Assembly: GCA_963663165.1 (NCBI GenBank)
Contig: OY760175.1
Span: 1,280,001 to 1,344,000 of the forward strand
Direction of reading: 5' to 3'
Origin: an uncultured Desulfospira sp.
Lineage (GTDB): Bacteria; Desulfobacterota; Desulfobacteria; Desulfobacterales; Desulfobacteraceae
Length of the DNA: 64,000 nucleotides
The position numbers were made by a program, and so were the translations under genes. Numbering within the stretch: the first letter of the stretch is position 1; every line of letters begins with the position of its first letter. The notes below the pieces were generated by a model. The model worked only from the letters and a program-made list of their open reading frames with translations, had not been told where the DNA came from and searched no databases. Shown one piece after another: positions 19,915 through 30,392 of this stretch.

Positions 19915-20021
19915 GGGATTTAGACTGAAGGGATTTAGGCTGAAGTATATCAATCATTTTTCGTTCCCCGGTTTTTTTCCTTTTCTTGCCTTTAGTCTTC
20001 AGCCTATCCACCTTCAGCCTG
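19915..20021. repeat. TTTAG(A/G)CTGAAG / CTTCAGCCT inverted repeat element, family D
   Basis: A 15-bp tandem GGGATTTAG(A/G)CTGAA x2 faces CTTCAGCCT x2. Related copies lie near 11815-11868, 21701-21738, 56701-56787 and 59245-59277. Confidence 0.7.
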
Positions 20022-20027
20022 CCCGTC

Positions 20028-20873
20028 CTAAAGATGCGCCTGTCCCTTGAACCGGCGGGTAATCATTTCAATAATTTCCTCGGCACTGGTTTCAATGGGT
20101 TTGTTGCTCACATCAATCATGGAGTATCCCCTGGTGATATAATATTTCTGGGCATCTTTAACCTCATTCTCCACCGCGGTCAAAGATGAATATTTCCGCA
20201 TATCCGGCGCCCCTAAGCTTTCCTGCCGCATCCGGCGATGGGCCAGAAGCTGTTCCACATTGATATTCAGGGCAATCACCCGGCGCCGGTCCACCTCATC
20301 GAGCCCGGCCGGCATGGGCACACCCGGCACATAGGGAATATTGGCGACCTTCCAGCCCATGACGGCCATATACATGGACAACGGGGTTTTGCCCGCCCTT
20401 GAAAGGCCGACCAGGGCAATTTCAGCCTCGTTGAGGGTATCCGGATTCATCCCGTCATCATGGGCCAGGGAAAAATCAATGGCCGACACCTGCTTGAGGT
20501 TGATATGGTGGGTTTCCCTGTAGAGTCCCGGCCGCTCAAGGGGGTCCTGATTCAAAAACGCCTGGATTTTGGACAGGATGGGCCCCATCAGGTCAATGGT
20601 GACAATATGGTATTCCATGCCCTTCCGGGTCAGGTACTGCCGTAATTCCGAATTCACAATGGTATGGACGATAAGGCTTTCAACATCCCGGACTTTTTCA
20701 ATGAGTTCATCCACCTGGCTTTCGGTCCGGATATGGGGCACTTTGACCACGGTGATTTTGTTGTTGGGAAACTGGACCAGGGTGGACTCCACCAGGTGAA
20801 ACCCGTTAATGCCCTCTCCGCATGAGGCCACATAGATCATCTGAAAATCATGGTGTTCAAGCGCATCAATCAT
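20028..20873 (-). CDS. PPDK/PEP synthase regulatory kinase/pyrophosphorylase (PDRP, DUF299)
   Basis: AIDFSLAHDDG, IALVGLSRAGKTPLSMYMA, KVANIP, IDVSNKPIETSA. Confidence 0.92.
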   Translation of the reverse strand: MIDALEHHDFQMIYVASCGEGINGFHLVESTLVQFPNNKITVVKVPHIRTESQVDELIEKVRDVESLIVHTIVNSELRQYLTRKGMEYHIVTIDLMGPILSKIQAFLNQDPLERPGLYRETHHINLKQVSAIDFSLAHDDGMNPDTLNEAEIALVGLSRAGKTPLSMYMAVMGWKVANIPYVPGVPMPAGLDEVDRRRVIALNINVEQLLAHRRMRQESLGAPDMRKYSSLTAVENEVKDAQKYYITRGYSMIDVSNKPIETSAEEIIEMITRRFKGQAHL

Positions 20874-21233
20874 GGAAATATCCTTTATTCCGGTTTTTAT
20901 TTACGGTATAACGGCCACGGGCCGCTTTGGTTATCCAACCAAGAGCCGCCCACAACAAATAATGAAACTGAAGATACCGGGAACGGCAGGCTATAAACTG
21001 GGCACCGCAGGTGCCTCGCCCTCTTGTCTCTTGTTTCTTGTCTCCAGTTTCTTATAAAACTGTCACGGGCGGCCTGGGGTTCAGGACCCGCTTTATTGGC
21101 AGCAAATATCGAAACTTTTTTACCGGCTTGTGCCAAAAGTTTCATATAAACCATAACGGGGAACAATGCAAACATGACGCGCCAGGGTGATCGCATGTAA
21201 CTTGCCTGCCGGTGATGTCAATTTCGAGGATAA

Positions 21234-21322
21234 GGATATGGGGACTTGGGATATGGGATATGGGACTTGGGTAGGCCACGGATGCTGCAATCCCCAAGTC
21301 CCATATCCCAAGTCCCAAGTCC
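21234..21322. repeat. GGGACTT/GGGATAT heptamer inverted repeat element, family A
   Basis: Tandem heptamers, then core AGGCCACGGATGCTGCAAT, then inverted CCCAAGT heptamers. Copies at 34363-34429 and 59075-59134, with an arm at 29191-29245. Confidence 0.85.
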
Positions 21323-21397
21323 ATTATATTGATCCTTATTTTCCATTCCAGGATGGATTATTTTTTTATATGCGCTTGCCCTGCATGACGCGCCGCA

Positions 21398-21706
21398 ATG
21401 GGGGACAATAAACAAACCATGGTGGTTGGAACCGGACAGATTAAATTCAGACTTTTTGATGTGCATTCCCTTAAAGCCAAACGATCCATTGTGAAATCCA
21501 TCATTGCCAGGATTCAGAACCGGTTTAACATCAGTGTGGCGGAAACCGGCCTCAATGACAGCCATGAATGGGCTGTAATCGGGTTTGCGCTGGTGGGAAA
21601 CGATGCCAGGGTGATCAACTCCAAGGTGGACAAGGTCTTTAACATGGCCGATGAGTTGGGATTGGCCATGGTGGCCGACACCCATATGGAAATCATTCAT
21701 GTTTAG
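21398..21706 (+). CDS. DUF503 family protein (start may be 21419)
   Basis: HSLKAKRSIVKSII..RFNISVAE..D.HEWAVIG. Confidence 0.9.
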   Translation: MGDNKQTMVVGTGQIKFRLFDVHSLKAKRSIVKSIIARIQNRFNISVAETGLNDSHEWAVIGFALVGNDARVINSKVDKVFNMADELGLAMVADTHMEIIHV

Positions 21707-22088
21707 ACTGAAGGCTCAAGGGGGGGCAGGCTGAAGAAGGGGAATCCAGTTTTTTGCGGGTTTTTCGTTTTCTTCGCTGTTTTTGTTTTTTGATTTTTTC
21801 CATCAGAACGGCCTGTTTCCCCGGATTTCCCGTCAGTTTGGCCTCAACCTGGTCGGCTAACAGCCGCAGGGCCATGAACCGGTTTAAATGCTGGGACCGG
21901 TGTTTGCCGTATTTGACGGCAATTCCCGTGGGGACGTGGCGGATAAACACCGCCGATGAGGTCTTGTTGACCTTCTGCCCTCCCCGGCCCGATGACTTGA
22001 TGAATTTTTCTTCAAGGTCGGTTTTCCGGATTCCTAAGCCCGCTATCCGTTTTTCAAGGGCCTCAAGTTTGCTTTTATCCGGTCCCAA
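21693..22088 (-). CDS. Peptide chain release factor-like protein (ArfB/C12orf65-type)
   Basis: FIKSSGRGGQKVNKTSSAV (GGQ motif), RSQHLNR and a basic C-terminal tail. Confidence 0.88.
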   Translation of the reverse strand: MGPDKSKLEALEKRIAGLGIRKTDLEEKFIKSSGRGGQKVNKTSSAVFIRHVPTGIAVKYGKHRSQHLNRFMALRLLADQVEAKLTGNPGKQAVLMEKIKKQKQRRKRKTRKKLDSPSSACPPLSLQSKHE

Positions 22089-22174
22089 TACGGTTTCCTT
22101 TTCTTTTATTCAGGTTAAAAATCATATACCATACCCGTACTGCCAATGGATATTAAAATCATTTGAGGAATGTT

Positions 22175-22651
22175 ATGACTGAAAAAATAAGCCGATGGGG
22201 GGTTGGACCGGTATTTGCCTTCTGGTCTGTTGGATATGGAATCATCATGCTGGCCATAAGCAGATGGTTTGCACCGGTATTTGAGATAAATTTTATACCG
22301 CGCCGGGTGGTAATGGGTGTTGGGATCGCCCTGCTGGCCATAGGGGTTCCGTTTTTCATCCGATCGGTGAAAACGGTGATGAAAGCGTATAATGCCGACA
22401 GGCTTGTTATAGACGGCACCTTTAAATACTGCCGACATCCCCTTTACGCATCGTGGGTGGTGTTTCTGGTTCCCGGGATCGTCCTTTTAGCCAACTCCTG
22501 GCTAGGTCTGACCACACCGGTATTCATGTATGCTGTTCTGCGAAGCCTGGTGGGAAAAGAAGAAGTATACCTGGAATCCGTATTTGGCCAGGAATACCTT
22601 GAGTATAAAAACAAGGTGCCCTGTATTCTGCCTTATGGGATGATGAAGTGA
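22175..22651 (+). CDS. Isoprenylcysteine carboxylmethyltransferase/PEMT-family membrane protein
   Basis: LVIDGTFKYCRHPLY...EEVYLESVFGQEYLEYKNKVP. Confidence 0.88.
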   Translation: MTEKISRWGVGPVFAFWSVGYGIIMLAISRWFAPVFEINFIPRRVVMGVGIALLAIGVPFFIRSVKTVMKAYNADRLVIDGTFKYCRHPLYASWVVFLVPGIVLLANSWLGLTTPVFMYAVLRSLVGKEEVYLESVFGQEYLEYKNKVPCILPYGMMK

Positions 22652-22681
22652 TACCGTTAACCTTTTATTGAATATTTTAAA

Positions 22682-22713
22682 CAGCGGCCGGAAATGGTAT
22701 CTTCCGGCCGCTG
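22682..22713. terminator. Hairpin between convergent genes
   Basis: CAGCGGCCGGAA-atggtatc-TTCCGGCCGCTG, 12-bp stem. Confidence 0.6.
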
Positions 22714-22744
22714 CGGTCAGTGGATCACTTTAAAACAACGAATG

Positions 22745-24664
22745 CTACAAAGACTTGTACAACAATATCAGTTTACGGGCATCCCGTACGGTAATGGCTC
22801 CGTCGCCGTCAAGGTCAGCGGCCGGATTAACCGATGCCGACTGCCTCAGAAGGCTGCGGATAGCACTGATGTCGCTGCGGTCAACGACACCGTCACTGTT
22901 GAGATCGCCGGTCACCTTGATGATGGTGTAGGTATCCATCAGTGAGCCATCCGCTGTACGGTAGGCGGAAACCGTAAAGGTGTCCCCATTTTCAACCTCT
23001 TGTACCTCTACGTTGAGGTAGGAGGGTTCCTTGGGCTGGCTGTATGCCGCAAAGTATAAGTTGGTCCAGCCGTCGATGTCGTTAAAATTGTAGTATTTAC
23101 TGCCTGAGGCTGAATCAGCGGTAAAGTAGACGGTTCCAGTGGGGTCAATAATCCTGCCTGCCTCATCTTTATTGGAATTATCCTCAGCCACCTCAAAGTT
23201 GGTGAGAGGATAAGTCCTGGCATAAAAATGATCATGCCCGGCAAGGACAACATCTATATTATAATCGTCCATAACCGGAACCAGGGAGGTCCTCAAAGTA
23301 GCCACATCGGTTACATGACTGGCTGAGCTGTAAAGAGAGTGATGGAAGACCACAACTCTCCACAGGGCGCTGGGATTTGCTCCAATAGCCTCACCCATGA
23401 ATTCACTGTGTGAAGCGGCACTGCTGTTGTTAGAGTTTAAGACCATAAACAAAACCTTGCCGTAGGTAAACCAGTAGTCGCCGGCATAGGTAATGGTCTC
23501 TTCGTCTATGGTAGATGAGAGTTTGCCGTAGTCCGACTCATTGGGAACATTAAACTGGTATGAGTAGAGAATACTCTTGTCATGGTTTCCGTTGGCAGGA
23601 GCCAAGGGCATGGAAGTAAGCTCTTCTGCACTGAAGAACCCCTCGTACTGAGTGTCCGAAGTGGCGGTTTCCACCTGGTCGCCGGAGCTCAGTATAAAGC
23701 TGGTATCTTCAAATTTGGTCAGGGCTGCGGTGACCGTTGTGGCCCAGCCTTCTGCATCACCGGTGGTGTCCCCGCTGGCACCGATCTGGGGATCACCCAC
23801 AAAGATGAAGTTATAGTTGTCTGATCCTTTGGTACGGAAGGTGTCCATGTCAGTGTAAGTATCATCATATCCCACGGCATAGACATATGTGGTGTCACTG
23901 TTAATATTGGGCATGGTGACTTTACAGGAATAGACAGTGGGCTTACAACCGTATTCGTTCACTTCAGTTCCTGATGAAGTATCCGGGCACTGGTCATCAT
24001 CGTCTGCCACTCCGTCACCATCCTCATCAGGACAGCCGGCATCATTCACTGTTGATCCCAACGGTGTTTCGGAACATGTGTCCACATCATTCAGAACACC
24101 GTCGCCGTCAGCATCATTGGCCAATTGACAGCCGTCTTCCCCCACCACGGTCCCGGCAGGCGTTTCAAGGCATTCGTCACTGGTGTTTGCAATACCGTCT
24201 TCATCATCATCCTGGCAGCCGTCTTCATTGACCGCAACACCATCAGGGGTATCTTCACAAAGATCACTGGTATCATAGACACCATCTCCGTCAGTATCGG
24301 TACCGCCGCCGGGGCCGCCGGGACCACCGGGGCCACCGCCGGGGCCACCGCCGTTAGGTGGGGCACCGCCGGAGGAGGAAGATTCCTCAAGAACTTCCGT
24401 CATTACAGCATCAAAAATTGTGGCTGATGCCGGGAATTCTCCGTCTTCAAGCTCGCTTTGTCTGCAGACTTTCACCTGGACAGGGGTGGGGTCGATGGTC
24501 AGCCAGCTAAAGTTCAGCTCAGCTTCATCACCGCCCAGCTGGATGGTTAGATTGTCAGCCTCATACGGGGTGGTCGCCGACGCCATTGAAATTGCTGTGC
24601 CGGAGATGCCCAGTACGAGGGTTGCGGATAAAAATAATCCGCAGGCCTTCAGTTTTTTGTTCAT
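22745..24664 (-). CDS. Secreted purple-acid-phosphatase-like metallophosphoesterase with TSP3-like repeats and a C-terminal dockerin
   Basis: Signal peptide; GDPQ, GDQVE, GNHD, VFHH and GHDH motifs; four DxDxDGV/I...C...GC repeats; C-terminal GDLNSDGVVDRSDI...ADLDGDGAITVRDA duplicated F-hand. Confidence 0.88.
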   Translation of the reverse strand: MNKKLKACGLFLSATLVLGISGTAISMASATTPYEADNLTIQLGGDEAELNFSWLTIDPTPVQVKVCRQSELEDGEFPASATIFDAVMTEVLEESSSSGGAPPNGGGPGGGPGGPGGPGGGTDTDGDGVYDTSDLCEDTPDGVAVNEDGCQDDDEDGIANTSDECLETPAGTVVGEDGCQLANDADGDGVLNDVDTCSETPLGSTVNDAGCPDEDGDGVADDDDQCPDTSSGTEVNEYGCKPTVYSCKVTMPNINSDTTYVYAVGYDDTYTDMDTFRTKGSDNYNFIFVGDPQIGASGDTTGDAEGWATTVTAALTKFEDTSFILSSGDQVETATSDTQYEGFFSAEELTSMPLAPANGNHDKSILYSYQFNVPNESDYGKLSSTIDEETITYAGDYWFTYGKVLFMVLNSNNSSAASHSEFMGEAIGANPSALWRVVVFHHSLYSSASHVTDVATLRTSLVPVMDDYNIDVVLAGHDHFYARTYPLTNFEVAEDNSNKDEAGRIIDPTGTVYFTADSASGSKYYNFNDIDGWTNLYFAAYSQPKEPSYLNVEVQEVENGDTFTVSAYRTADGSLMDTYTIIKVTGDLNSDGVVDRSDISAIRSLLRQSASVNPAADLDGDGAITVRDARKLILLYKSL

Positions 24665-24828
24665 TTCTTTTCCTCCTTATTGTTTCTTGTTTGTATGAAA
24701 ACCCTTTCCATAGGCTTTCATTTATTTGTTATGGGCGAACCCGGATTTTAGCTTCCCGGGGTTAGGCCCTTGACGCTTATGGGGTTAAAACCGCAATCAA
24801 AGAATAGAAATTCGGATTTATTTTCAGT

Positions 24829-25992
24829 CTAAGGTTTCTTTTTTAGTAATCTTGCCGTAACCGCAGCGGTCAGCGGGATGGTCAGCACCACGGCCATGCT
24901 CCCTGACAGGGCCTGTGCCGTTTCAATGGCAACAAGATTTGAACTGATCAGCTGATTGTACTGAACACAATAAAAATTAAGGATCAGGATGGTGGACAGG
25001 GCCGCCCCCACAAATGCCAGTATCAACGTGTTGGACATGGTCCCGATCATGTCCTTGCCCACATTCATGCCGGCCTTAAACAGGTCCATGGCGCCGAGGT
25101 CCGGCCGGTTGACATGCAGTTCATTGATGGCCGATACAATGGACATGGCCGTGTCCATGACCGCTCCCATGGAGGCAATCAGGATGCCGGCAAACAGAAG
25201 ACGCTCAACCCCGAGCCCTGTTTTCTGCCTGATAAACAAAAGGCTTTCCGCCTCCTCTAAATTAAACCCTGACACATGAACCAGGCGGCTGAAAATAAGC
25301 AAAATGATCCCGGACAGAATGACACCGCAGGCGGTTCCGGTTATGGCACAAAGGGTTTTTTTGCTGACGCCGTTCAGAAAAATCATATTGGCAGACGTTA
25401 CCAGTATCACCAGGCCCACAGCACTCCAGGCCGGGGAATATCCCCTCATGATCAGCGGCAAAAATATGAACAGGATACAGACAAAAGTGTATATCAGATT
25501 CAAGCATGACATCAGCCCTTTCTTTCCGCTGACAAGGGTCATGGTCAGTAAAAAAATCAATACAAATAAATATATATAGGGGGCCCGGTCATAGTTATGG
25601 ACGCGAACCTTGAGTTTTCCGGAATCCAGCTCATCGACCACGACAACAAGTTTTTGGCCTTTTTGGGCAGTCACACTGTTATAAGTGGTCAGATAATTGT
25701 TTGCGGTCAGGGTTTCTCCTTTGTGCCTGCCTGAGAGCATCTCAACTTCAAGCACCTGTTTGCCAACCGGGATTTTGCTTGAGTGGGTGCTTTTTCTAAT
25801 GGATTGGTCAACAACAGATAAAACCCGGCATTTTTCATAATCGACGGTGGCTTTGGCAAACCGCCGGGTGTATTTGGTGTATTCTATCCGGCTGACGGCA
25901 AGAATAATGGCAGCGGCAAGAAGAATTAGCCCCAATGAAACAAGGAAATTCAAAATTTTAACATTGGTAAAAACAGGCCTTTCCTTTTTCAT
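24829..25992 (-). CDS. YibE/F family membrane protein
   Basis: AGILIASMGAVMDTAMSIVSA...GMNVGKDMIGTMSNTLILAF. Confidence 0.92.
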   Translation of the reverse strand: MKKERPVFTNVKILNFLVSLGLILLAAAIILAVSRIEYTKYTRRFAKATVDYEKCRVLSVVDQSIRKSTHSSKIPVGKQVLEVEMLSGRHKGETLTANNYLTTYNSVTAQKGQKLVVVVDELDSGKLKVRVHNYDRAPYIYLFVLIFLLTMTLVSGKKGLMSCLNLIYTFVCILFIFLPLIMRGYSPAWSAVGLVILVTSANMIFLNGVSKKTLCAITGTACGVILSGIILLIFSRLVHVSGFNLEEAESLLFIRQKTGLGVERLLFAGILIASMGAVMDTAMSIVSAINELHVNRPDLGAMDLFKAGMNVGKDMIGTMSNTLILAFVGAALSTILILNFYCVQYNQLISSNLVAIETAQALSGSMAVVLTIPLTAAVTARLLKKKP

Positions 25993-26108
25993 CTAAGATC
26001 ACCTGAATTTTTATGGTTGTGCCGGATCACAAGGGTAAAAGGGTTTATTTATTACCGGCAGAGACAAAAAGACCGCAGCCTTGGCTTTTCATCTTTGCCG
26101 TAAGGATG

Positions 26109-26146
26109 ATGCCAATGCCCTGTGTCGGCTCACAGGGCATTGGCAT
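26109..26146 (-). other. 16-bp perfect stem-loop downstream of the cohesin gene
   Basis: ATGCCAATGCCCTGTG-tcggct-CACAGGGCATTGGCAT, with no U-tract on the minus strand. Confidence 0.75.
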
Positions 26147-26170
26147 GACACATGATATCTTTTGCAAAAA

Positions 26171-26719
26171 TTAATTTTTACATTTTCTGGAAAGACCGGC
26201 CAACCCCATGAGGCCCAGGCTCATCAGGGCAAACGCGGAGGGGACGGGTACCGGGCTGGTTGTAACGTTGATGGTAAAAATGATGGATTCGATATCAATT
26301 GCGGCATTATCTGAAACACTGCCGATGGTAAGGCTGAATCCCTCGCCCAGGCTGTCCCCTATAAATGTAAGGGTTGCAAGCACAAAACTGGCGGATTGGC
26401 CATCAAAGACAGCATCGTCTTCACTTAAATTAGAAATTGCACAAAGATTAACCACACCGGCGCCATTGTCGCCATAACTGTAATCACCAACATCACCAAG
26501 ATCAAAACTGCCCAATTCGTCAGTGAACACATAAGTGTCAAACGTCAAGCTTGCATCATCATAATTGAGATCCAGATCAAAACCCGCCAAGTCAGCGTTT
26601 TCCAGCCCTGAGACATTAATCTCAACCTGGTATACCGCTGCCATAGAAGCGGACGCGTTAAAAAATAAAACGGCTGTAAGACAGAGGATGGTAGTGGCGA
26701 TTTTCTTGATTAATAACAT
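26171..26719 (-). CDS. Cohesin-like domain protein with a PEP-CTERM/VPLPA-type sorting signal
   Basis: Signal peptide; VEINVSGL..DLAGFDLDLNYD..LTF...FVLATLTF cohesin pattern; C-terminal PVPVPSAFALMSLGLMGLAGLSRK. Confidence 0.78.
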   Translation of the reverse strand: MLLIKKIATTILCLTAVLFFNASASMAAVYQVEINVSGLENADLAGFDLDLNYDDASLTFDTYVFTDELGSFDLGDVGDYSYGDNGAGVVNLCAISNLSEDDAVFDGQSASFVLATLTFIGDSLGEGFSLTIGSVSDNAAIDIESIIFTINVTTSPVPVPSAFALMSLGLMGLAGLSRKCKN

Positions 26720-27002
26720 GAGTTTTTTCCTTTTTTGTTTTTAAAATTCTTTTGGGTTGTTTCTCTAAGAGCTGTCAGCCCTTAGCTGCAAGCCTTTGGC
26801 TGCTGGCAGGATAAGGCAATCCTGAACGCCAAGGGCTGGCAGCTAAAGGCTAATGGCTTTCAGCCTTCACTTCCTTCATTTGGTCCATACGGCCACCCTT
26901 GTCAGGGGTGGCCAACTGCTGGTTCAATTTGTAACGCTGTGCTTCGAGATCGCACTACACCACAGGAAAATTAGCGGACCGTTAGTGAAACATTAAATCC
27001 CT

Positions 27003-27041
27003 CTAACAAATTGCTGACGAAACTCTGACAAACGGACTAAC
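27003..27041 (-). promoter_or_regulatory. Pho-box/OmpR-type direct repeats upstream of the cohesin gene
   Basis: Minus strand GTTAG, GTCAG, GTCAG, GTTAG at 12/11/11-bp spacing, followed by TTTAAT. Confidence 0.55.
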
Positions 27042-27469
27042 GTCAAAAGAAGATTCAGAATTCAGATACTGTGTGTTTATATTCACATTTTAGCGGGGAT
27101 TTTGATGCATTTAAGGTATGGTTATTGCTTTCAGTATAAAAATTGCCAATATCGCGAAGCGTTAATCACCAAAAATAAAAAAAGGGGCGTCTCCGGTCTC
27201 CGTCCTTCCAATTTCCCGCCTAAGCCCCAAAATTCATCTGGACCAAATTTTAAACATTTGATATAGATTTTTTTAATGGTAATTGGTAAACTAATTTCCT
27301 ACTGAAATATGCAGCATTCATTCACCCCGCTATATTAATAATGGATTTCAAGGGGGCGTGTGGGCCGGTAGAAGGCAGCTTAAAAAATCAAGTCCGCACT
27401 CATACTGGATAAAACAGGGGTTGATGTTTTAATGGGAACCCAAGATTACACTTAAGAAAGGAGAAATAA

Positions 27470-28795
27470 ATGGCAGAAACTGTCATCAAGCTTGGTAAAA
27501 AGAAAAAAACCAACACATTCCTGGAAAAGGTCAAGGAAATCCTGCCCGAGGGCGGGAATCTGAATGCCTGCCTGACCTGCGGCGCCTGCTCTTCAGGGTG
27601 CCCGGCAACGGGGCTGGCAGACATGGATCCCAGAAAATTCCTGCGCATGGCAGCCCTGGGCATGGATGAAGAGATCAAAAATTCCGACTGGCCCTGGATG
27701 TGCACCATGTGCATGCGTTGCATCTATGTCTGTCCCATGAAAATTGACATTCCCCAGCTGGTCTACAACGCCAGGGCGCTCAGGCCCAGGGAAGAACGGC
27801 CCAGGGGTATTTTAGGTTCCTGTGATGCGGCCCTCAAGCACGATACCGGATCAGCCATGGCCGCCTCTGAAGAAGACTTTGAATTTGTTGTGGATGATGT
27901 CCTTGAAGAGTACCGGGAAGCCCAGCCCGAGTTTGCTGAAATGGAAGCGCCCATTGACAAGGAAGGGGCTGAATTTTTTCTGAACCAGAACTCCAGAGAA
28001 CCGGTAACCGAACCCGATGAAATGGTCCCCTTATGGAAAATTCTTCACACCGCCGGCGTTGACTGGACTTACGGGTCCAAAGGCTGGGGCGGTGAGAACT
28101 ACTGCATGTTCCTGGCAGACGATGAGTCCTGGAAAAAACTGGCGTCCACCACCATCGGACAAGCCAAAAAGCTGGGGTGTAAAACATACCTCAATACCGA
28201 GTGAGGGCACGTAACCTTTTCGGTCCGGGCCGGAGCGAAAAAATTTGGTATTGATCATGAAGGTATGGAAATCAAAAACATCTACGAGTACTACGCAAAA
28301 TGGATCCGCGAGGGCAGACTCAAACCCAGTTCAGACTGGAACAAGGACTTAAAGATTAAGTTCACGGTCCAGGATCCCTGCCAGATCGTTCGGAAAAGCT
28401 ATGGTGATCCCATTGCCGATGACCTGCGGTTTGTGGTCAAATCCATTGTAGGCGAAGAAAACTTTGTGGACATGCAGCCCAACCGTTCCAACAACTACTG
28501 TTGCGGCGGCGGGGGCGGATTCCTGCAGTCAGGCTTTAAAGACGAACGGCTTCAATACGGAAGGATCAAAGACCAGCAGATTAAGGCCACCGGCGCAGAT
28601 TACTGCATTGCCGCCTGCCATAACTGCCATGCCCAGATCCACGAGCTGTCCGAACATTACGGCGGCGAGTATCCGGTAGTTCACCTGTGGACCCTGCTTT
28701 GCCTGTCCCTTGGCATCCTTGGTCCCAATGAAAGAGAGTACCTTGACGACCGGCTCAAGGACGTGGCGGTTTTTCATCCGGAAACGGAAATGTAA
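27470..28795 (+). CDS. Selenocysteine-containing (Fe-S)-binding HdrD/GlpC-like protein (2x4Fe-4S + CCG domains)
   Basis: ORFs 27470-28204 and 28265-28795 are in frame and separated only by TGA 28202-28204 (YLNTE-U-GH). CLTCGACSSGCP, CTMCMRCIYVCP, QDPC, CCGGGGG and ACHNC motifs are present. Confidence 0.88.
28217..28241 (+). promoter_or_regulatory. Bacterial SECIS-like hairpin
   Basis: TTTTCG-G-TCCG-ggc-CGGA-G-CGAAAA starts 12 nt after the TGA and has a G-rich apical loop. Confidence 0.7.
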
Positions 28796-28903
28796 GCAAG
28801 AAACTAGAGACAAGATACAAGAAACAAGATTCGAGCAAGAAACAAGAGGGCGGTCTCTTCCCCCTCTTGTTTCTTGTTTCCAGTCTCTTGTTTCTTGTTT
28901 CCA
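28796..28903. repeat. AAACAAG/AGACAAG heptamer inverted repeat element, family B
   Basis: About 7 heptamers, core GAGGGCGGTCTCTTCCCCCTC, then inverted CTTGTTT heptamers. Related arms at 7168-7214 and 21000-21053. Confidence 0.85.
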
Positions 28904-29040
28904 GCAATCCTGAAGGCGGCCACCCCAAAGGGGATTCCCACCACTGTTAGACACAAAAGCCCGCCGAGCAGCAGCCAGAGAATCCATGAAAAAAATCCGC
29001 CGCCCAGGACAAACCAGAGAATATTGAGCAATAATGTCAT
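28903..29040 (-). pseudogene. Truncated YccF-domain membrane protein
   Basis: MTLLLNILWFVLGGG...LCLTVVGIPFGVAAFRIA (first YccF repeat) runs directly into the heptamer array. Confidence 0.75.
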
Positions 29041-29351
29041 TGGGGTTTCCTTTTACCATCTGTCTTTTTTTTCCGTTAAAAAGGACCACATGGGGTAAAA
29101 CTTTAATCACTCTGACATTGATTGGCAAGGTATACTCTTTAGGCTTTAGACCCTGGACTTCAGACTTTAGACTAAAAGGCCCTAAGACAATCTCAAGTCC
29201 CATATCCCAAACCCCAAGTCCCCCCCATGTCCCATGTCCCAAGTCTCTAACACAAATCAGTTGACAAAATCCACACAAACGAGTAATCCATTACCGTTTT
29301 GTTCTTTTATACCAGTACAATCATTAACCTATTGAACAAGGAGCAGGGAAA

Positions 29352-30392
29352 ATGAGAAAAGGAATTTGCCAAAAAGCCCGTTTGGTGTCGATCTTGGCTG
29401 TGGTTTTGTTTTTTGGTGCAGGCTGTTTATCCCCGGTGTTTGCCGACAGGCCCAAATTCGGGCACGTGGCCCCGCCCTTTCACGGCCAGGCCAAAGGTGC
29501 CGAGGCTTTTGCCGCCTATATAAAGGAAAAGACCCAAGGCAAAATCGACATGGCCACTTTTCCGGCAGGCCAGCTCGGAGGAGAACGCTCCCTTGCCGAA
29601 CAGGTTCAGGCCGGGACCCTTCAGGTGGCCACCATTACCACAGCCGTCCTTCAGAATTTCATTCCCCAGTGCGCCATCATGGACATGCCCTTTATTTTCC
29701 CCGACAGGCAAACCTTGTACGCCACACTGGACGACCAGGAGGTTCAGGACAAACTCTTTTCCCTGTTCCCTAAAAAAGGGTTCATTGCCATTGGCTGGAC
29801 GGAAAATGAAATCCGTGATTTCACCAACACCAAAAGGCCTGTCAGAACCCCTGACGATATCAAGGGCCTTAAGGTCAGGGTCATGAATTCCCCAGTCTAC
29901 CTGGATACCTTTAAACAGCTGGGGGCATCGCCTGTGGCCATCCCCTTTCCTGAAATCTACAACGCCCTTCAGACCGGCGTGATCGATGCCCAGGAAAACC
30001 CCATCATGACATCCATTCTCATGAAATTTACCGAGGTCACCAAATACGTGACAAGAACCCAGCATTGCGTAACCGAATGCGTCATTGTGGTCAGCCCGGC
30101 CTACTGGGCCACCCTGTCCAAGTCGGAACAGGAAATTTTCCGGCTGGCCGCCAAGGTATGCGTTGAAACCAACCGGAATGTGAATGCAGACCTTCACCAG
30201 GCCCTTCCCAAGTCCAATATCTCCGTTGATGAGTACGCCAAACAAAACCAGATCGAGATCATTGACCTGACGCCGGAGCAGCGGGAAAACTTCAGACAGG
30301 CCATGACACCGGTATGGGATAAGTATCGTAAAAAAATCGGGGGCGACCTGTTTGACTTTATCCTGGAAAAAATCAAATCCCACAGCCATTAA
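29352..30392 (+). CDS. dctP: TRAP transporter substrate-binding protein
   Basis: FPAGQLGGER, DIKGLKVRVM, EIYNALQTGVIDAQENP. Confidence 0.93.
   Translation: MRKGICQKARLVSILAVVLFFGAGCLSPVFADRPKFGHVAPPFHGQAKGAEAFAAYIKEKTQGKIDMATFPAGQLGGERSLAEQVQAGTLQVATITTAVLQNFIPQCAIMDMPFIFPDRQTLYATLDDQEVQDKLFSLFPKKGFIAIGWTENEIRDFTNTKRPVRTPDDIKGLKVRVMNSPVYLDTFKQLGASPVAIPFPEIYNALQTGVIDAQENPIMTSILMKFTEVTKYVTRTQHCVTECVIVVSPAYWATLSKSEQEIFRLAAKVCVETNRNVNADLHQALPKSNISVDEYAKQNQIEIIDLTPEQRENFRQAMTPVWDKYRKKIGGDLFDFILEKIKSHSH

Follow-up and report, generated by a model that had tools for sequence, protein, structure and literature searches.

A small exosortase-type cohesin protein as the predicted anchor of a dockerin-bearing phosphoesterase in an uncultured Desulfospira

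We analysed a stretch of 64,000 nucleotides from the genome of an uncultured Desulfospira sp. (GenBank assembly GCA_963663165.1, contig OY760175.1, positions 1,280,001 to 1,344,000; hereafter the window, in which positions are counted unless the source genome is named). Three open reading frames (ORFs) of the window, here called genes A, B and C, follow one another in this order on the minus strand. Their predicted products are a small exported protein with a single cohesin domain and an exosortase-type sorting tail (A), a YibE/F-family membrane protein (B) and a secreted metallophosphoesterase that ends in a dockerin (C). We consider it fairly probable that A tethers the dockerin-bearing phosphatase C, at the cell envelope or in the matrix around it, by a predicted calcium-dependent docking. 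Tethering of the phosphatase to the cell surface had been proposed in an earlier interpretation of the letters of the window alone (hereafter the sequence-only reading), which took A and C for a minimal pair and the middle gene for a bystander. The domain assignments, the exosortase, the conserved gene order and the model of the complex agreed with the tethering, and none of the refuting conditions that could be computed came true; the lone pair and the bystander role of the YibE/F gene did not hold.

We assigned A to the cohesins because of its paralogs, the matches of its family profile to the PDB, the Pfam rates within the family and the predicted fold. The cohesin-like pattern noticed in the sequence-only reading was thereby confirmed, though the Pfam model misses A itself, and both of its strings, DLAGFDLDLNYD and FVLATLTF, are present in the protein. 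Four paralogs of A were found in the source genome, which consists of 6.74 Mb in one contig (E-values 6e-34, 4.5e-27, 7e-19 and 4e-10). The paralog at positions 5634930-5635625 of this genome passed Pfam Cohesin with 29.9 bits at a cut-off of 24.1, and two further paralogs scored 22.0 and 19.8 bits, which is under the cut-off. Among 1.84 billion cluster representatives a profile of the A family matched 10882 at E ≤ 1e-3, of which 727 reached E ≤ 1e-30, and the matches are mostly 180-210 amino acids (aa) long. In 100 aligned members Pfam, at E ≤ 0.01, recognised Cohesin in 67 and PEP-CTERM in 88. The best match of the profile among PDB sequences was 3l8q_A (7e-7), followed by the NagJ cohesin 2jh2_A (2.2e-5). 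The AlphaFold2 model of A, built on a 100-row alignment, had a mean predicted local distance difference test (pLDDT) value of 90.9 and a predicted template modelling score of 0.77. It comprises a helix at residues 2-20, eight strands of which the first begins at residue 28, near the predicted end of the signal peptide, and a C-terminal helix at residues 162-181. A Foldseek search of the PDB with this model returned 23 matches at E ≤ 1e-3, and the matches listed were cohesin entries, 3ul4 and 4dh2 among them; the best was 6kge_A (E 5.2e-5, TM 0.61 by target). The predicted fold is thus that of a cohesin. On the model and the sequence profiles, A belongs in diverged form to a very large family of small proteins that each combine one cohesin with an exosortase-type tail. 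The combination of PF07589 with PF00963 is already visible in the precomputed annotation of databases on two proteins (P0003 and P0004).

In the product of gene C Pfam recognised a Metallophos domain (PF00149, 48 bits) and a C-terminal Dockerin_1 domain (PF00404, 30.3 bits at a cut-off of 22.9, and 35.9 bits in the scan of the whole genome). The sequence-only reading had described C as a secreted metallophosphoesterase with a two-repeat dockerin at 22757-22909, which agrees with the Pfam boundaries of 22766-22909. The two calcium loops of the dockerin, DLNSDGVVDRSD (residues 587-598) and DLDGDGAITVRD (residues 617-628), are both complete by sequence: they match the 12-residue pattern with Asp or Asn at positions 1, 3, 5 and 12 followed by a helix, and their Asp residues are invariant in the 10 members of the dockerin subtype to which C belongs. 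In the catalytic part the five metallophosphoesterase motifs GDPQIG (residue 290), GDQVE (328), GNHD (359), VFHHS (439) and GHDH (476) are all invariant among close relatives (alignment A5), and weak PDB matches were obtained to plant purple acid phosphatases (2qfp_A, 2.9e-4). By its sequence features C is a purple-acid-phosphatase-like metallophosphoesterase. A linker and calcium-binding TSP3 repeats are inserted into a loop of its N-terminal FN3-like domain; the TSP3 region matches a TSP3 protein of the OmpA family (5wtl_A, 1.4e-9), and the insert is present in the metagenomic relatives P0158 and P0160 and not in P0163 or in P0157, the ortholog from the same-genus genome G001. The best 120 homologs of the catalytic part carry PF07554 (10 proteins), PF00395, the S-layer homology domain (8), PF00404 (7) and PF00963 (2), and NCBI names two of the eight PF00395-bearing homologs as S-layer homology proteins. 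Surface retention recurs in the enzyme family of C, because PF00395, PF07554 and PF00404 are found among these homologs, and this would suit an enzyme that works best when it is retained at the cell. The possibility that C is a lipoprotein was rejected, since Cys8 precedes the hydrophobic core.

Docking of the two proteins was modelled with residues 27-157 of A (100-row alignment), residues 575-639 of C (10-row alignment) and two calcium ions. The dockerin alignment (A3) consisted of 10 sequences from the source genome, G001 and a further related genome, G004, only, since a word-based search that started from the dockerin of C found no protein other than C. The model of the complex scored 0.90 (0.90, 0.91 and 0.89 in separate runs) in comparison to 0.01 for the best of three controls, a model of this kind being among the checks proposed in the sequence-only reading; contact agreement between the runs was at least 98%, and the pLDDT of the partner was 85. 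On the dockerin side the predicted interface is made by the second helix (T625-K631, I633 and L634) and part of the first (R596-R607), and the contact segment of the second helix is the subtype-specific TVRDARK, in which the subtype shows no variation at D628 and R630 and hardly any at A629. The cohesin contributes residues 45-48, 80, 93-100 and 133-142, including F47, S96 and D137, which are among the most conserved positions of the family. The model supports the binding of A and C without showing it.

The pair is one of several in the source genome, as was revealed when further dockerin proteins were looked for. The Dockerin_1 scan gave 23 matches on 19 proteins, and five of the dockerins, including that of C, share the distinct sequence LRQ ... 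D-x-D-G-D-G-x-I-T-V-R-D-A-R-K. In a tree of 22 dockerin segments these five form one group (support 86/92); their identity to each other is 42-64% and to the other 17 dockerins 18-39%. All five sit on phosphoesterase-type proteins, with a Metallophos domain in four (Table 1). The fifth carries choice_anch_I, whose reading as a phosphoesterase is suggested by its fusion to Metallophos; a PDB sequence search with the choice_anch_I protein found no phosphatase relative. The remaining dockerins are carried by subtilases, by Ig/PKD-rich giants and by small proteins in which Pfam recognised no other domain, and at the thresholds used no glycoside hydrolase or carbohydrate-binding module (CBM) was detected on any of the 19. 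Each anchor in the set, A and its four paralogs, bears one cohesin, and three of the five cohesin genes lie within 2 kb of a dockerin gene of the phosphoesterase subtype. The paralog at 4706862 mirrors the layout of the window, with a cohesin gene, one LRR_5 gene and then a dockerin enzyme. The paralog at 5967253 comes directly after the gene of the 1059-aa enzyme, in an island that encodes a 5'-nucleotidase, the 578-aa enzyme and a further small protein with a tail as well. Since the middle genes and the catalytic domains differ, the paralogous loci are not simple block copies. A further cohesin-like protein is encoded at 720521, immediately after a protein with a dockerin that is the sister of the phosphoesterase group. 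A dockerin gene is found at a distance of no more than 2 kb for four of the six cohesin-like genes in comparison to a random expectation of 0.12 of six, and the corresponding P of about 2e-6 overstates the case, as paralogous loci and a same-genus genome are non-independent samples. Thus, the minimal lone pair of the sequence-only reading has to be replaced by five cohesins and five phosphoesterases with dockerins of the same subtype.

Conservation of the neighbourhood points in the same direction. With A as the protein query, relatives were found in three of 41 related genomes, the source genome itself, G001 and G004. The same-genus genome G001 keeps the trio in the order cohesin, YibE/F and phosphatase-dockerin, which answered the question of synteny raised in the sequence-only reading; the identities are 43-48% for A, 84% for YibE/F and 72% for the catalytic part of the phosphatase. 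In G004 the cohesin gene directly precedes that of a TSP_3/DUF11/dockerin protein. Across the phylum the A-family profile matched 39 of 401 genomes at E ≤ 1e-8, many of them over the tail only. We sampled the flanks, up to 8 kb on each side, of 20 matches outside the source genome with E ≤ 1e-18 (16 genomes; weaker matches were left out) and searched them with a dockerin hidden Markov model (HMM) built from the 22 segments of the source genome. A dockerin ORF on the same strand was found next to the cohesin gene or one gene away in 16 of the 20 cases; three (L100, L101 and L112) had no dockerin within 8 kb, and for one (L107) the contig was too short. When 16 dockerin ORFs, including those of G001 and G004, were submitted to Pfam, Dockerin_1 was recognised at E ≤ 1e-4 in 10. 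The cargo of these dockerins elsewhere includes Metallophos with choice_anch_I (G332), a multicopper oxidase, PKD giants, DUF333 proteins and beta-propellers. In view of such diverse cargo, the cohesin-dockerin pair is to be seen as a general cassette and the phosphoesterase use as that of the source genome.

Some other observations were made on dockerin loci. A small protein with a VPVP-type tail lies within 2 kb of 12 of the 19 dockerin genes of the source genome, the random expectation being 1.3; examples are at 6103508-6115050, 5284077-5287501, 3625229-3629237 and 3552752-3556002. Several of these small proteins, which are encoded beside subtilases and small dockerin proteins, give no cohesin sequence signal and can be aligned with each other only in the tail, as is also the case for the five beside subtilase dockerins. 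Such proteins may be additional docking partners that have so far escaped recognition. A PKD-rich giant that ends in a dockerin has, in one genus, a cohesin and PEP-CTERM gene on either side (L108, 8037-19517 in G335, with an open frame of 3827 aa; L103/L073 in G122, comparably long). A fusion of Metallophos with choice_anch_I that terminates in a dockerin occurs in two distant genomes, at 2751648-2754779 of the source genome and at 8573-11806 of L099 in G332. Proteins of the choice-of-anchor I family normally end in a covalent sorting signal, the place of which appears to be taken by the dockerin in these fusions.

The C-terminal tail of A reads PVPVPS-AFALMSLGLMGLAGLS-RKCKN (residues 156-182 of 182). 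The architecture expected of an exosortase substrate is complete, with a signal peptide, a Pro-x-Pro motif, a hydrophobic helix and a terminal basic cluster. The PEP-CTERM/VPLPA-type signal that the sequence-only reading had ascribed to A was upheld in its architecture and, marginally, by TIGR02595 (16.2 bits at a cut-off of 16); it was not upheld by PF07589 and TIGR03370. In the source genome TIGR03370, the VPLPA-CTERM model, gave 59 matches at E ≤ 1, of which 19 were above the cut-off, and among the matches are three paralogs of A at lower scores and not A. The paralog p4706 passes PF07589 with 22.8 bits, and the cohesin-like protein at 720521 passes TIGR03370 with 27.1 bits. A regular expression for Pro-x-Pro, helix and basic tail was matched by 103 ORFs of the genome, 46 with a VPVP start and only six with a VPEP start. 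As for the processing enzyme, which the sequence-only reading had suggested looking for, the exosortase family PF09721 has three matches in the genome. One is XrtD (517 aa), the VPLPA-CTERM-specific exosortase, with 601.3 bits at a curated cut-off of 400; the second scores 196.6 bits on the general model TIGR02602 only and has a separate EpsI gene, and the third match is weak. This second system occupies positions 1445976-1449731 (L001), where EpsI and then the exosortase are encoded as separate genes, and it adjoins a fragment of an ISAzo13-family transposase. The genome also encodes BamA (603 bits), the GspD secretin (507 bits) and DsrA (603 bits) and therefore has the markers of an outer membrane, of a possible route across it for folded proteins and of a sulfite-reductase gene.

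Taken together, A and C would both be exported by the Sec pathway, as their signal peptides suggest. XrtD would then likely cleave the tail of A, and by analogy with the family the mature cohesin would become attached at the envelope or in the matrix. C would likely have to cross the outer membrane, possibly via the type II system, after which its dockerin is predicted to bind the cohesin of A with calcium; A probably binds the four sister dockerins as well. Judged by its catalytic domain, C may hydrolyse phosphate esters near the cell and so take part in phosphate scavenging. A wider proposal is that exosortase-dependent cohesin-dockerin systems are general in bacteria with an outer membrane and retain secreted proteins at the surface, and that the system is specialised here as a five-anchor, five-enzyme surface 'phosphatasome' with a dockerin subtype of its own and with YibE/F as a dedicated membrane partner. 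We put this forward tentatively and with somewhat less than even confidence.

The middle gene of the trio had been correctly identified as YibE/F (PF07907, 250.6 bits), and a Kyte-Doolittle scan of its product gave eight hydrophobic segments. Among the cohesin loci examined a B-type gene was present only in the window and at the G001 ortholog; B is therefore not part of the cohesin-dockerin cassette. Its role as a bystander was nevertheless not borne out, as the YibE/F family proved to be tightly linked to secreted phosphatases. All three YibE/F genes of the source genome adjoin a secreted phosphatase gene: the other two (2599907-2603485 and 3283993-3286682) directly follow PhoA-family genes (220 and 214 bits), and one of them is followed by the gene of a VPLPA-CTERM protein. 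Elsewhere in the phylum YibE/F was found in 13 of 200 other genomes, and at 12 of the 13 loci it is immediately preceded by a PhoA-family gene of the same strand. All four loci of G001, G002 and G004 show this arrangement too, which brings the linkage to 16 of 17 loci outside the source genome (L122-L133 and L065-L068), the exception being a truncated YibE/F copy. The literature search, which had subscription journals outside its scope, found no paper that links YibE/F to phosphatases and no functional study of YibE; the family is named in one gene list from transposon-directed insertion site sequencing. By its genomic linkage YibE/F looks like a membrane partner of secreted metallophosphatases, and our guess is that it supplies metal or takes up the product or phosphate. 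For this widespread family of unassigned function the linkage offers an initial clue to what it does.

The arrangement of the three genes, which the sequence-only reading had also described as co-directional, is given in Table 1. By their coordinates they form a co-directional cluster, in which a Shine-Dalgarno-like purine run precedes each gene and the gaps are 178 nucleotides (nt) between A and B and 164 nt between B and C. The stem-loop behind gene A has a calculated folding energy of -33.1 kcal/mol (z -4.8), and none of 200 shuffled sequences was equally stable. It is possible that this structure acts as an attenuator, which would raise the ratio of anchor to enzyme, that it is a terminator, or that it stabilises the mRNA. 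A consensus scan of 22400-27500 gave 12 promoter-like matches in comparison to a mean of 7.1 in shuffled sequences and eight terminator-like matches in comparison to 6.0, none of them convincing. The sigma-54 consensus was matched 27 times in the window at 36.8 expected, without a match upstream of gene A; one match with two mismatches falls inside the start of gene C. No Rfam family matched in the 20000-30000 region, and blastn of four intergenic stretches against the source genome itself gave only short, weak matches. Spurious ORFs at about 20897-21330 and 28700-29280 of the window and at 5636376-5636624 of the source genome translate to the recurring strings GGxWLDNQxGPWP and GTWDMGLG and to QETRD repeats. 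A short DNA element may therefore recur between genes, in some cases next to genes of tailed proteins.

Table 1. Features of genes A, B and C in the window, and the proteins of the source genome that carry a dockerin of the same subtype as C.
Feature	Position	Strand	Remarks
Gene A	26171-26719	minus	ORF of 182 aa; small single-cohesin protein with signal peptide and exosortase-type tail
Signal peptide of A, residues 1-28 (MLLIKK...ASASMAA)	26636-26719	minus	read from sequence
Cohesin beta-sandwich of A, about residues 28-155	26255-26638	minus	predicted; AlphaFold2 model, Foldseek, family profile
Sorting tail of A, residues 156-182 (PVPVPS, hydrophobic helix, RKCKN)	26174-26254	minus	TIGR02595, sequence
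Perfect stem-loop of 16 bp	26109-26146	minus	about 25 nt past the stop codon of gene A; without a U-tract
Gene B	24829-25992	minus	ORF of 387 aa; YibE/F-family membrane protein, PF07907
Gene C	22745-24664	minus	ORF of 639 aa; secreted purple-acid-phosphatase-like metallophosphoesterase, C-terminal dockerin
Signal peptide of C, residues 1-30, ending in ASA	24575-24664	minus	read as a Sec signal from sequence
Gly/Pro-rich linker and TSP3 repeats of C, about residues 99-236	23957-24370	minus	TSP_3 Pfam matches
Metallophosphoesterase core of C, residues 286-480	23225-23809	minus	PF00149, motifs
Dockerin of C, residues 586-633	22766-22909	minus	PF00404; two calcium-loop repeats, a helix after each
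Subtype dockerin protein 1 (gene C)			Metallophos
Subtype dockerin protein 2 (578 aa)			Metallophos
Subtype dockerin protein 3 (1059 aa)			Metallophos, internal dockerin
Subtype dockerin protein 4 (1043 aa)			Metallophos and choice_anch_I
Subtype dockerin protein 5 (729 aa)			fn3 and choice_anch_I

Several points weigh against the tethering of C by A, the most general being that its support comes throughout from in silico analysis and not from the bench. The Pfam Cohesin model PF00963 did not match A at E ≤ 1. Likewise, PF07589 scored the tail of A at 19.7 bits, under its cut-off of 20.7, and TIGR03370 did not match A at E ≤ 1. The GspD secretin makes the crossing of the outer membrane by C possible and no more, and the placement of an exosortase-sorted A at the cell surface is an assumption. 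The intervening gene B, the two intergenic gaps and the strong hairpin separate A from C, by which the case for their co-expression is weakened. Two of the five cohesin paralogs (5634930 and 6527242) have no dockerin partner nearby, and one of the five subtype dockerins, that of the 1043-aa enzyme, has no cohesin nearby. Six of the 16 dockerin ORFs in other genomes, including the G001 ortholog, are recognised as such by our own HMM (E 2e-8 to 6e-16) and not by Pfam at E ≤ 1e-4. The pass of the complex model may reflect likeness only, because cohesin-dockerin complexes have already been solved; moreover, the mark for such models, which 116 of 157 solved complexes and two of 215 mismatched pairs attained, was calibrated differently, since our model used its own alignments and calcium. 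Finally, the second catalytic motif of C reads GDQVE and lacks the Tyr ligand of the GDxxY motif of purple acid phosphatases. C is therefore filed as purple-acid-phosphatase-like and not as a true member of these enzymes, in view of this motif and of Pur_ac_phosph_N, a domain that is split here by the TSP3 insert and reached 27.7 bits at a cut-off of 30.

Other explanations of the same loci differ in what the cohesin would do. The cohesin and the dockerin may bind and yet yield phosphatases that are held in a matrix or floc, or A may be an escort that carries its cargo through the envelope and then releases it. PEP-CTERM proteins have been linked to exopolysaccharide and floc formation, and the tail of A weakly matches the model of the floc protein PepA (21.1 bits, under a cut-off of 80). 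The lower identity of A to its G001 ortholog (43-48%, in comparison to 84% for B and 72% for C) fits an exposed protein in either place. The evidence for tethering applies equally to retention in a matrix, and our computed results do not distinguish matrix from surface; an escort role is not known to have a precedent among the cohesins. We regard this explanation as rather unlikely. A functional pairing may also be absent altogether, if A has another ligand, the dockerin of C is a calcium-binding module that stabilises the protein or binds the matrix, and the adjacency of the genes stems from local gene history. This would agree with the failure of Pfam Cohesin to recognise A, with the two cohesin paralogs and the one subtype dockerin without a nearby partner (and, likewise, three of the 20 cohesin genes elsewhere) and with the PxP-tailed small proteins near 12 of the 19 dockerin genes. 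As several of these tailed neighbours lack a cohesin signal, the adjacency of dockerins to tailed proteins is broader than cohesins. However, 16 of 20 cohesin genes in 16 genomes adjoin dockerin genes with unrelated cargo, the dockerin subtype and the cohesin paralog group match five to five, and the complex model separated the pair from its controls (0.90 vs 0.01) with conserved residues on both faces. We therefore give the absence of pairing little weight.

The functional unit could instead be YibE/F together with the phosphatase, the cohesin gene being a separate transcription unit that serves all five dockerin enzymes. In favour of this arrangement are the secreted phosphatase beside each of the three YibE/F genes of the source genome, the PhoA-family gene upstream of YibE/F at 16 of 17 loci elsewhere and the strong hairpin after the cohesin gene; cross-binding is plausible, since the contact residues are conserved across the five dockerins. 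On the other hand, YibE/F lies upstream of the phosphatase in the window and downstream of it in the PhoA pairs, and the order of the trio is kept in G001. Such a division of the locus is compatible with the tethering of C by A rather than opposed to it, and as an explanation that replaces tethering we find it very improbable. The tethering of the phosphatase by the cohesin protein is the reading that we prefer.

Binding between cohesins and dockerins is among the strongest known protein-protein interactions, and what is understood of it comes almost exclusively from cellulose degraders of the Gram-positive type. If the pairing proposed here is real, this plug-and-socket is also used by double-membraned bacteria, combined with the attachment chemistry of exosortases, and exosortase substrates, whose role is largely obscure, gain a concrete job. 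A sediment-type bacterium could in this way keep its phosphate-releasing enzymes from diffusing off. Moreover, five anchors and five enzymes with dockerins of one subtype would make up a compact system, which could provide new orthogonal parts for Gram-negative surface display.

Non-cellulosomal cohesins and dockerins occur in all domains of life, and their role is called unknown in the accessible text of two papers (PMC5244752, PMC9012536), both of which cite the survey of such proteins by Peer et al. 2009. A comparable proposal is the hypothetical 'planctosome' of freshwater Planctomycetes, a cohesin-dockerin assembly with peptidase cargo, TSP3 repeats and a tether to the outer membrane (PMC6461901, as far as its accessible text goes). 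According to that text it shares with the system of A and C a non-cellulolytic cargo outside the cellulose degraders and the TSP3 repeats, and the case is purely genomic for both. The anchor proposed there is the lamin-tail domain of a protein of 2210 aa, together with an adaptor; unlike for A and C, neither PEP-CTERM nor an exosortase, neither phosphatases nor a small protein with one cohesin are described in that text (PMC6461901). In the literature within our scope we found no work that links a cohesin or dockerin with PEP-CTERM or exosortase, which is a provisional absence. Provisionally, then, the docking of cohesin and dockerin is known, and what appears to be undescribed in print is the exosortase anchor in a double-membraned bacterium together with the phosphoesterase cargo.

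With PEP-CTERM/XrtD sorting (Haft et al.; TIGR02595, TIGR03370, TIGR04152) the system has in common the signal peptide, the Pro-x-Pro motif, the helix, the basic cluster and XrtD itself. It differs from described exosortase substrates in that the passenger is a cohesin, a predicted docking site, for which we found no such function described, and in that the tail of A is at or below the thresholds of the models. Use outside cellulose degradation is shared with other cohesins as well. The entries 2jh2, 2o4e and 2ozn belong to NagJ/NagH-type glycosidase and toxin complexes of Clostridium perfringens, and 2xdh is the cohesin of Archaeoglobus fulgidus; NagJ is the second-best PDB sequence match of the A family and is among the top folds. 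The former are large multidomain enzymes and the latter is archaeal and without a sorting tail, whereas A is a small putative anchor with an exosortase-type tail, and the gene of its predicted cargo is close by.

Close parallels are also found in the cellulosome field, although a true cellulosome was rejected for this genome, where no scaffoldin, CBM or glycoside hydrolase is part of the set and the resemblance is to a minimal cellulosome anchor only. The entries 3ul4 and 4dh2, found with the predicted fold of A, are complexes of OlpA/OlpC of Clostridium thermocellum, which are anchored by S-layer homology (SLH) domains. ScaE of Ruminococcus flavefaciens is a single cohesin anchored by sortase through LPXTG. 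These systems and that of A and C have in common the cohesin fold and a two-repeat calcium-binding dockerin, and in each a small protein bears one cohesin and an envelope signal, by which the enzyme is predicted to be held directly. Unlike OlpA/OlpC and ScaE, the set described here contains no multi-cohesin scaffoldin or CBM, its predicted cargo is phosphoesterases and not glycoside hydrolases, the bacterium has an outer membrane, and the part of the SLH domain or the LPXTG motif would be taken by a VPVP tail of exosortase type.

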